This document shows positions 11,901 through 15,111 of a stretch of DNA of 15,111 nucleotides, in pieces. The number at the start of each line of letters is the position of its first letter. The stretch's first letter is position 1. Source of the DNA: a virus (lineage: Duplodnaviria; Heunggongvirae; Uroviricota; Caudoviricetes); the IMG/VR virus record IMGVR_UViG_2529293044_000014, positions 1 through 15,111 of that record. One strand, written 5' to 3'. Made by a program: the position numbers.

Positions 11901-14900
11901 TCAGGTGGAGTACCCCACCTTTTCATCAAGCCAGCCCACCCACCACTGCATCATTTCTCTGCGCTTATAGAGATACTGAGCATGGTTGTAAATTCAGCAA
12001 ACGACGCAATGTGTTTGACAAAAAATTAGCGCAAGAAGACAAAAATCACCTTGCGCTAATGCTCTGTTGTAGGTCACTAATGCTATCTAAGTAGTTGATT
12101 CATAGTGACTGCATATGTTGTGTTTTGTCGCATTTTGTAGTCTGTTATTTAACCGCAAATACTTATAAGCATGTGATTTTTAAATGATTTATATAATTTT
12201 GTCATCCTTTGGGTGAAAAAGGTTGAGTCGCAAAGCGGAATGCATCTAGCATAAAGCCTTATTATTGATGAGGCTATCATGCGCGTACTGCTATTGTTAC
12301 TACTTTCCCTTTTCATGTTATCGGCATTTTCGGCTGATAACCTGTTGCGCTGGCATGATGCACAGCATTACACGGTGCAAGCCTCTACGCCGCTAAAAGC
12401 CAAACGCGCATGGAAACTGTGCGCGCTTTATCCCAGTTTGAAAGATTCATACTGGTTATCGTTGAACTATGGTATGCAGGAGGCTGCTCGCCGCTACGGT
12501 GTGGATTTAAAAGTGCTGGAGGCAGGCGGCTACAGCCAGTTGGCTACGCAGCAAGCACAAATCGACCAGTGTAAACAGTGGGGTGCAGAGGCCATTTTGC
12601 TCGGTAGTAGCACGACGTCATTTCCCGACCTGCAAAAGCAGGTAGCAAGTCTGCCGGTGATCGAACTGGTAAATGCTATTGATGCTCCCCAGGTGAAAAG
12701 CCGCGTTGGTGTGCCGTGGTTTCAGATGGGCTATCAACCAGGGCGATATCTGGTGCAATGGAGTCACGGAAAACCACTGAACGTGCTGTTGATGCCCGGC
12801 CCCGATAACGCCGGGGGCAGTAAGGAGATGGTAGAGGGTTTTCGCGCAGCCATTGCCGGAAGCCCGGTACGTATTGTCGATATTGCGCTCGGTGATAACG
12901 ATATTGAAATCCAGCGTAACCTGTTGCAGGAGATGCTGGAACGCCATCCAGAAATCGACGTCGTTGCCGGAACGGCCATTGCGGCAGAGGCGGCAATGGG
13001 GGAAGGGCGCAACCTGAAAACGCCGCTTACCGTGGTGTCGTTTTATCTTTCACATCAGGTGTATCGCGGGTTGAAGCGGGGAAGAGTGATTATGGCAGCC
13101 AGCGATCAAATGGTCTGGCAGGGGGAACTGGCGGTTGAGCAGGCTATCAGGCAATTACAGGGGCAATCGGTGTCTGATAATGTCAGCCCACCGATTTTAG
13201 TCATGACGCCGAAAAATGCCGACCGCGAACATATCCGCCGCTCGCTGTCACCAGGGGGATTTCGTCCGGTTTATTTTTATCAGCACACATCAGCGGCTAA
13301 GAAATAACCTTCGCCATGTTGTGTCACCAGTAAATCTGCACTGAGTTTATGGCGTAAACGACGAATTAACACATCGACGGTGCGCAGGTCAGGGTTTTCC
13401 ACCCGACGCGCAGAGAGCATACGCAGCAGACGTTCACGGCTGAGAATTTCGCCGGGATTGGTCACAAACGCCACCAGCATTTCATACTCTGCGCGGGTCA
13501 GTTTAATCGGCTCTCCGTAAGCGACTCGTCAGAACCGTATTGATATTTACTGAGAGCTCAGATCAACTTTCCAGGGCAACAGATCGCGTACCCGGTTTGC
13601 CGGCCAGTCCTGGATATGTTCAATGACGTAACGCAGCCACTTTTCTGGCTCCACATTGTTCAGACGGCATGTGCCGATCAGCGAGTACAACACCGCCGCA
13701 TGTTCACCACCGCTGTCGGAACCCGCGAACATCCAGTTTTTCCGGCCTACGGCCACTCCCCGTAAGGCGTTCTCTGCGATGTTGTTGTCGATTTCCACCC
13801 AGCCATTACTGCAGTACACGTTCAGTGCATCCCACTGTTTCAGCAGGTATGCGAACGCTTTTGCCGTATCTGAGTGACGCGACAGTGTTTTCATCTGTTG
13901 CTGTATCCAGTCATACAGTGACTGCATCAGTGGCGCGGCTCTGGCTTTTCTTGCCGCCAGACGCTGTTCTGCTGAACAGCACCGGACCTCTGCCTCGATG
14001 GCATACAGTTCACCGATACGCTGCAGGGCTTCCGTGGTGATGTAGGTGGGCGCTCTTGCATGCACATCGTGGATTTTTCTCCGGGCATGAGCCATACACG
14101 CGGCTTCCGTTATTCTGCCGGATTCGTATAACGCCCGGTAACCACCGTAAGCATCGGCCTGAAGCACACCGCTGTAACCGGCCAGGTGATTTTGTGGATG
14201 GATACCTTTCCGGTCCGGACTGTACGCGAACCAGACCGCCGGGGGCATCTGTGAACCGGCGTTACGGTCATCACGGACGTAGACCCACAGCCGGGCTGTC
14301 CGGGTTTTACCGCTGCCCGGCTCCTGGACCGGGACGGGGATATCATCAGCATGGACTTTACCGGGCATCAGCACATACTGGCGCAGGACGTCATACAGCG
14401 GCTCCAGCAGTTCAGCAACAGCACCTGTCCAGCGCCCCAGTGTGGCACGGCTCAGCTCCACGCCCTGACGACGGTATATTTCTGACTGGCGGTATAACGG
14501 CAGATGGTCTGCATATTTCCCGGTGACAACATGGGCCAGAAGCCCCGCTCCGGCATAACTGCGTGCAATGGGTTTTGAAGGTACTGGTGCCTGCACGATA
14601 TGGTCGCACCGGCAACAGGCCTGTTTCGGACGTTGTGTTTCGATAACCTTAAAGGCGCTGCTGATAAGCTCCAGTTGCTCTGACACATCACATCCCAGAG
14701 AACTGAGTTCACCACCACAGGCAGGACAGCATTCCTCTTCCGGCCGGATAACCCGGGTTTCACGGGGAAGTGAGGCCGGTAACGGTTTACGGGCTGAAGA
14801 CTGGCGCAGGGCGGATGGCAGTACCGGGTCATATTGCTCACCCAGCGTTTCCGCCATTTCTTCCTGAAGTGCGCTGATTCGCTCCTGTGCTTCCTGTATC

Positions 14901-15111
14901 TGCCGTTCGGTTTTTGCACGAAGTTTTTCTGAGCTTTTACCGAACTGCATACGTTGCAGTTTCGCAACCAGCGCCTTCAGCCGGTTGATTTCGGAAGCAT
15001 AAGCCGCCACCCGCTGTGAGAGCAGGCGGTTGTATTCAGCCATCTGGCGGATGGTGTCCTGTTGCGTCTGCAACAGTGCCCGCAGGCGGGCGTTCTCATG
15101 AGCAAGTGAGG

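Follow-up and report, generated by a model that had tools for sequence, protein, structure and literature searches.

Trimethylamine N-oxide (TMAO) induces its own reductase in Escherichia coli through the TorS/TorT/TorR system. TMAO is bound by TorT, which relays the signal to TorS; TorR is then phosphorylated by TorS and, bound to the tor boxes, switches on torCAD. In torR mutants, torCAD is not induced. Here we describe a 15,111-bp stretch of DNA (the window) in which torR is truncated by an insertion sequence (IS) of the IS66 family. The window is the entire draft contig AIFD01000003.1 of E. coli DEC2E (GCA_000249235.2), both ends of which lie in repeats. DEC2E is an enteropathogenic E. coli (EPEC) and a close relative of the prototype EPEC E2348/69 (O127:H6), which is the nearest complete genome to the window.

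The Tor genes of the window stand in the same order as the TorS/TorT/TorR-torCAD genes of K-12, and the 3' ends of torT and torR converge with a 28-bp overlap, as in the wild type. Unlike the K-12 locus, it has no torR codons 1-152 at this position. A further difference is that a lambdoid effector prophage separates torS from torT, as it does in E2348/69.

Nested deletions promoted by an IS are classic for IS1, IS903 and IS10/Tn10, and the IS629 deletions of E. coli O157 are a further example. From a shallow search of the literature, we know of no such series for the IS66 family. The DEC2E locus and its relatives (loci from other genomes carry our labels, L followed by a number) resemble IS-promoted adjacent deletions in that one IS end is fixed, namely the left inverted repeat (IRL), at a position in torR that we call site A, in L032. 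The opposite end borders on increasingly distant DNA, with no flanking duplication. They differ in that the element belongs to the IS66 family, for which transposase-mediated deletion and recombination between two copies both remain candidates.

The element resembles ISCro1 in its set of IS66 domains and, in full copies, in the tnpA-tnpB-tnpC layout, the GTAAGCG/GTAACCG termini and the 8-bp duplications. In itself it shows no difference; the copies here measure 2,699 bp, however, against the 2,824 bp quoted for an ISCro1 (PMC8764528), so that the ISfinder name is provisional. In Citrobacter rodentium ICC168, ISCro1 has multiplied to 24 copies (PMC3072379), and in E. coli ST131 it is located in the afa promoter (PMC8764528).

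On the evidence of the sister assemblies set out below, we consider it probable that DEC2E carries an ancestral insertion at site A that was followed by a 250-bp deletion anchored at the IS, and that its torR is null.

An IS66-family element truncates torR

The preliminary description of this DNA held that an IS66-family element truncates torR while torT is intact. The torT open reading frame (ORF), the models of TorR and of IS66 transposases, and alignment to E2348/69 all bear this out. The features at the junction are as follows.

12279-13307, + strand: torT, intact, 342 amino acids, the TMAO-binding periplasmic partner of TorS (NF008185, 494.9 bits, cut-off 200)
13280-13516, - strand: torR remnant, residues 153-230 plus the stop codon (equal to residues 153-230 of E2348/69 TorR)
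13509-13516: GGCTCTCC, the 8 bp adjoining the IS end, a target duplication only under simple insertion
13517-13538: right terminal inverted repeat (IRR) of the IS, GTAAGCGACTCGTCAGAACCGT, sharing 16 of 22 positions with the left repeat GTAACCGGCTCATTTAAACCGT found in complete copies
13517-15111, - strand: IRR-proximal 1,595 bp of a 2,699-bp ISCro1-type IS66-family element, inside which the contig stops
13547-15111, - strand: tnpC, IS66 DDE transposase, 523 amino acids in full copies, its first 7 nucleotides beyond the contig end

An exact-protein look-up finds the identical TorT protein in E2348/69 and in many other genomes. The torR piece is a gene remnant, not a gene. About 79 codons had been reported to survive; the coordinates given for them stand, and the precise count is 78 codons plus a stop. 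The remnant aligns to positions 155-231 of the 231-position TorR model NF008034, with 134.7 bits (under the cut-off of 275), and shows zero mismatches to E2348/69. By Pfam, an intact TorR consists of a receiver domain at residues 5-113 and a Trans_reg_C winged-helix unit at residues 153-225. The remnant is the complete Trans_reg_C unit alone, without the receiver domain. Its longest ORF has 66 amino acids and starts at Met165, and no ORF in the window torR unites a receiver domain with the DNA-binding unit.

This 66-amino-acid C-terminal ORF is called as a gene of its own in 224 blocks of the collection. Ten such loci, all from unrelated genomes, were inspected (L004-L013, torR region ~9500-10200 in each), and their torR carries varied small lesions: a 13-bp deletion, one nonsense codon, and 1-bp insertions or deletions at nucleotides 413, 436, 446 and 469. 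In three loci, the break is no more than a scaffold gap of Ns. Part of the small insertions and deletions may be long-read sequencing errors.

The IS terminus had also been placed exactly where the TorR frame breaks, and this placement is correct. The match to E2348/69 ends exactly at 13516 and does not run past 13517, where the IS terminus begins, so that the break lies between these two positions. At the breakpoint, E2348/69 and K-12 read ...AATCGGCTC(T/G)CC followed by ATCCCGCTCC, while the window reads ...AATCGGCTCTCC followed by GTAAGCGACTCG. The 8 bp adjoining the IS, GGCTCTCC, are near-identical to GGCTTTCC, the proven 8-bp duplication of another copy of this IS (L003).

The window, a short draft contig, terminates within a multi-copy repeat, and the join could in principle be an assembler chimera at that repeat, with torR really intact in DEC2E. 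The switch, however, falls exactly at the biological IS terminus GTAAGCG. Furthermore, the same junction occurs, to the base, in the independent assembly L038 (NJMD01000097.1), so that it is known from two assemblies including the window. L038 lacks both the IS10 that DEC2E carries in nleC and the private single-nucleotide polymorphism (SNP) of the window at 12156, and thus confirms the junction independently. We therefore reject an assembly artefact as the cause of the junction, and a chimera seems barely credible. A megablast search of 5,426 complete RefSeq E. coli genomes found neither this junction nor that of site A, so that none of them offers a scaffold for the locus. A literature search found nothing relevant on torR disrupted by an insertion sequence in enteropathogenic E. 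coli, nor on AIFD00000000.

The interrupting element is of the ISCro1 type

With the IS66 transposase model NF033517 (cut-off 180), the tnpC ORF of the window reaches 475.7 bits, and it matches all four IS66 Pfam domains, PF03050 (345 bits), PF13817, PF13007 and PF13005. The assignment to the IS66 family made in the preliminary description is confirmed by comparison with known elements: positions 13517-15111 are 99.6-100% identical to elements that thousands of E. coli records, both chromosomes and plasmids, label "IS66-like element ISCro1 family transposase". The element could equally be an IS679-like isoform.

Complete copies at other loci show what the contig end cuts off. The window segment is 100% identical to complete copies in L014 and L032 and 99.8% identical to that in L003, and over its 1,595 bp it differs at only 1-2 positions from the copies in L034 and L003. 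Whereas the window has tnpC only, the complete copies that are 100% identical to it over the shared 1,595 bp (L014, L031 and L032) have tnpA, tnpB and tnpC. In E. coli ML775 (L003), the complete copy spans 2,699 bp, carries the same three genes and has the 8-bp duplication GGCTTTCC on both sides; its termini are GTAAGCGACTCG... and GTAACCGGCTCA..., and its inverted repeats are imperfect. In full copies the IRL starts with GTAACCGGCTCA, and the left end of the IS reads ...GACCAGACGGTTTAAATGAGCCGGTTAC. The 8-bp target duplication can be seen for the L003 copy (GGCTTTCC) and for the site-A insertion of the lineage (AGCGTTCT), while the window copy displays one end only. An exact look-up of the truncated 467-amino-acid tnpC gene call gave no other DEC2E contig.

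Six of eight flanks directly next to an IRR end in TCT, TCC or CCT, and two flanks are near-identical (GGCTCTCC and GGCTTTCC). The flanks listed are window 13509-13516, L003 2501-2508, L014 2451-2458 and 11481-11488, L034 6458-6465 and L029 2553-2560. The pattern hints at a target preference of this IS, in a sample too small to test it.

Sister assemblies show the IS end at several points

The locus was pulled from sister assemblies by an exact-protein look-up with TorT and with the 44-amino-acid ORF between nleC and nleD. The ten relatives comprise drafts of the DEC1/DEC2 series, two chromosome-scale assemblies from NCTC and some further ones; they were scanned for IS termini and aligned to the window. 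All are at least 99.9% identical to the window in the shared flank, with the same IS in the same orientation. Across the flanking 3.8 kb, the window and the site-A strains are 99.97% identical, with one private SNP. The locus occurs in the following states.

L029 (AIEY01): torR intact, torCAD adjacent, no IRR-side junction
L014, L030, L031, L035, L036 and L037: site A, ...CCACCGTTGAGCGTTCT joined to GTAAGCG, 250 bp deeper in torR than in the window
Window and L038 (position 6310): site B, the window junction, ...GGCTCTCC joined to GTAAGCG
L032 (AFJB01; IS at 5387-8085): torT and the 3' part of torR deleted, 1,737 bp beyond site A, at window-equivalent 12029, between nleD and torT
L034 (AIEZ01; position 6466): deletion into nleD, 2,392 bp beyond site A, at window-equivalent 11374, inside nleD

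Across the lineage, the IRR has four endpoints: torR nucleotide 214, torR nucleotide 456, the nleD-torT spacer and the interior of nleD, at 0, 250, 1,737 and 2,392 bp, respectively. On the IRR side, site A reads ...GAGCGTTCT joined to GTAAGCG in six sister assemblies. On the IRL side, L032 reads CCGGTTAC joined to AGCGTTCT, followed by the 5' end of torR (a 76-amino-acid ORF), torC and torA. This IRL flank, AGCGTTCT, is the second copy of the 8-bp duplication, which indicates that site A was originally a canonical IS66-type transposition at torR nucleotides 207-214. The two flanks of the IS in L032 do not match each other (AAAATTAG versus AGCGTTCT, no duplication), as expected after an adjacent deletion.

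The protein collection agrees with the site-A state. The predicted site-A fusion product (TorR residues 1-71 plus CNRLI, 76 amino acids) is found there exactly, named from DEC1E and DEC2D and present in other genomes too. A 69-amino-acid version, truncated by the contig end, occurs on 43 contigs.

The truncation fits a site-A insertion followed by an IS-anchored deletion

An IRL fixed at site A, an IRR at 0, 250, 1,737 or 2,392 bp and the lack of a duplication in L032 are together the signature of IS-anchored nested deletions. This pattern of adjacent deletion is seen across the lineage; DEC2E shows the IRR side only. The simplest account derives both DEC2E and the NJMD strain from a site-A genome, with a subsequent loss of 250 bp beside the IRR. 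In the first step, the IS would have entered torR in an ancestor of the DEC1/DEC2 EPEC lineage, at nucleotides 207-214, and generated the 8-bp duplication AGCGTTCT. In the second step, the IRR end of the resident IS would have been joined to a new point 250 bp along, after torR nucleotide 456/457 (site B), with loss of the intervening DNA. The route could have been intramolecular transposition, or a second nearby insertion and recombination between both IS copies. The same process would have gone further in two sisters, over 1.7 kb in one (torT gone) and over 2.4 kb in the other (into nleD). The far IS end of DEC2E would then be flanked by AGCGTTCT, torR codons 1-71 and torCAD, its left-end junction would read CCGGTTAC joined to AGCGTTCTCGCAGGGCG, and about 81 codons of torR would be missing altogether.

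For the lineage as a whole, we put at roughly even the chance that DEC1/DEC2 strains preserve a natural series of nested deletions anchored at the IRR of one resident IS66 element. The endpoints resemble target sites of the element itself, as GGCTCTCC does beside the proven duplication GGCTTTCC. If the series is real, it would be evidence that IS66-family transposases perform intramolecular, deletion-forming transposition in the wild, and the lineage would be losing its tor regulatory genes and the effector nleD step by step.

The main rival is the model implicit in the preliminary description, a simple and independent transposition into an intact torR at site B. The 8-bp duplication would then be GGCTCTCC, and the first 155 codons of torR, with torCAD, would lie directly past the IS. 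The IRL side would read ...AATGAGCCGGTTAC joined to GGCTCTCC ATCCCGCTCC..., that is, CCGGTTAC joined to GGCTCTCCATCCCGCTCC, with torR from nucleotide 449 upward. Such an insertion accords with a junction exactly at the IS terminus, with adjoining 8 bp very similar to a target duplication proven for this IS, and with a lineage member (L029) whose torR is intact. Its predicted 155-amino-acid product (TorR 1-155, stopped by the TAA in GTAA) is, however, absent from the protein collection, as is a 169-amino-acid version expected without a duplication, although the collection does contain the gene calls of DEC2E itself. A simple insertion would also mean that this IS struck torR twice within 250 bp and in one orientation, in a clonal group of which at least seven assemblies already have site A. 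In addition, two other members have the same IS end displaced further, without a duplication. We regard a simple insertion at site B as unlikely, and the expected arrangement, with the 5' part of torR immediately past the IS and an 8-bp duplication to match, will probably not be found in that form.

Several points nevertheless weigh against a two-step history. The far IS end in DEC2E itself lies outside the window, the contig stopping inside the IS. With its intact torR, L029 shows that not every member of the lineage has site A, which leaves room for an independent insertion into an undamaged gene. Site B has the look of a favourable ISCro1 target, and the resemblance of GGCTCTCC to GGCTTTCC fits a deletion endpoint chosen by the transposase and, equally, a fresh insertion. 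The lack of the 155-amino-acid protein is a negative finding, which hinges on how genes were called where a contig ends. Finally, rearrangements between IS copies, as in L014, L030 and L031, could also have taken place in DEC2E.

These three assemblies carry a 72-bp copy of the IS right end directly before the complete IS (L014 11489-11560, L030 8858-8929 and L031 8857-8928). Their far flank is the nleG/DUF4765 region in L014 and L031 and a third context in L030, none of them with a matching duplication. The 72-bp fragment may be the trace of an IS-into-IS insertion and a later rearrangement. Together with the unrelated far flanks, it indicates that IS-IS rearrangements also occur at this locus.

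Likewise, the torR IS of DEC2E might have recombined with another copy elsewhere, by inversion or translocation. The DNA past the IS would then be unrelated and torCAD would lie elsewhere, an outcome that could be combined with either history. In favour stand the far flanks of L014, L031 and L030, and the presence in relatives of several IS copies less than 10 kb from the locus. However, the window lacks the 72-bp fragment that all three carry, and L032, which lacks it too, keeps the torR 5' part and torCA as its far flank. We hold recombination of this kind in DEC2E to be quite improbable.

Inducible TorCAD expression is predicted to be lost

Judged by its domain content, the remnant in the window cannot give a functional TorR, being a winged-helix unit without a receiver. 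TMAO-inducible expression of torCAD is thus predicted to be lost in DEC2E. With a site-A insertion and a later deletion, about 81 codons would be gone, so that excision of the IS could not revert the torR lesion. E. coli has other TMAO-reducing enzymes, TorYZ and DmsABC, and TMAO reduction therefore need not be abolished; the predicted loss is confined to the inducible TorCAD route. The loss of TMAO respiration, as first described, is too strong a claim.

We also considered whether the Tor pathway was already dead through the "frameshifted" torS of E2348/69 (L025 4680-7423). The sole lesion of this gene relative to K-12 is a 1-bp deletion 26 nucleotides before the gene end, which gives 910 instead of 914 amino acids. 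A TorS of 910 amino acids is also called in L019, a non-lysogenic genome without the prophage. The idea was rejected on these grounds, and the 910-amino-acid TorS of E2348/69 is probably functional.

A known IS that knocks out a known regulator in a draft genome is an ordinary event of an already known kind, and it has little importance beyond the lineage. Within it, DEC2E and most DEC1/DEC2 EPEC are predicted to be unable to induce the TorCAD TMAO reductase, unlike the prototype E2348/69. The added value lies only in the lineage-level picture of a stepwise, IS-anchored erosion of torR, torT and nleD, which suggests that one resident IS can strip its neighbours in turn: torR, then torT, then the effector gene nleD. 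For annotators, the "missing" half of torR is to be sought on another contig, probably without the expected target duplication.

IS10 disrupts nleC in an IS-active lineage

A further IS lies elsewhere in the window.

8367-9695, - strand: IS10, 1,329 bp, with a 402-amino-acid IS4-family transposase, in nleC (NF033591, 404 bits)

The IS10 splits nleC, a type III secretion system effector gene, after codon 29. Its ends are CTGAGAGATCC... and ...GGATTCATCAG, with the 9-bp duplication TACTCTGCT at 8358-8366 and 9696-9704. It is absent from all ten relatives examined, including L038, which shares the torR junction. The preliminary description had counted a second, different IS disrupting a gene in the window, which this copy with its 9-bp duplication substantiates, and had proposed an IS-active lineage. 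The latter proposal is upheld by the IS10 in nleC and by the same IS66 element at no fewer than five different positions in the region among the ten sister assemblies. A 295-amino-acid C-terminal NleC ORF is recorded on six contigs elsewhere.

Genomic setting of the window

The remaining features place the locus at the right end of a prophage.

480-3959: phage tail protein J, 1,159 amino acids (ECDEC2E_0280)
11106-11804, + strand: nleD (type III secretion system effector), intact in the window and truncated by the same IS66 element in the sister AIEZ01
12207-12278: the kept 72 bp of the torS-torT intergenic region, with the lambdoid prophage right end (nleB2, nleC, nleD) to the left of ~12207

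Positions 9696-13516 of the window match E2348/69 over 3,821 bp at 99.95% identity, and positions 3284-8367 match it at 97.8% identity. The equivalent region of E2348/69 is the right end of a lambdoid prophage with nleB2, nleC and nleD, integrated in the short torS-torT intergenic region; torT, torR and torCAD lie downstream of it. Homology to K-12 begins at window position 12207, 72 bp upstream of torT, with 96.4% identity over 12207-13513.

At position 12156, in prophage-end DNA ~120 bp upstream of torT and a little to the left of the start of K-12 homology, the window has C against T in all relatives examined. The difference may be a SNP private to the window or an error of sequencing. The prophage tail-fibre region at 4562-6261 is 97.8% identical to E2348/69 and ~98.8-99.5% identical to the sister strains. 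The tail-fibre gene of the window is split into ORFs of 375 and 123 amino acids instead of one gene of 437 amino acids, and a 470-amino-acid antisense ORF lies there as well. This divergence may be real variation or a draft-assembly collapse of paralogous prophage copies.

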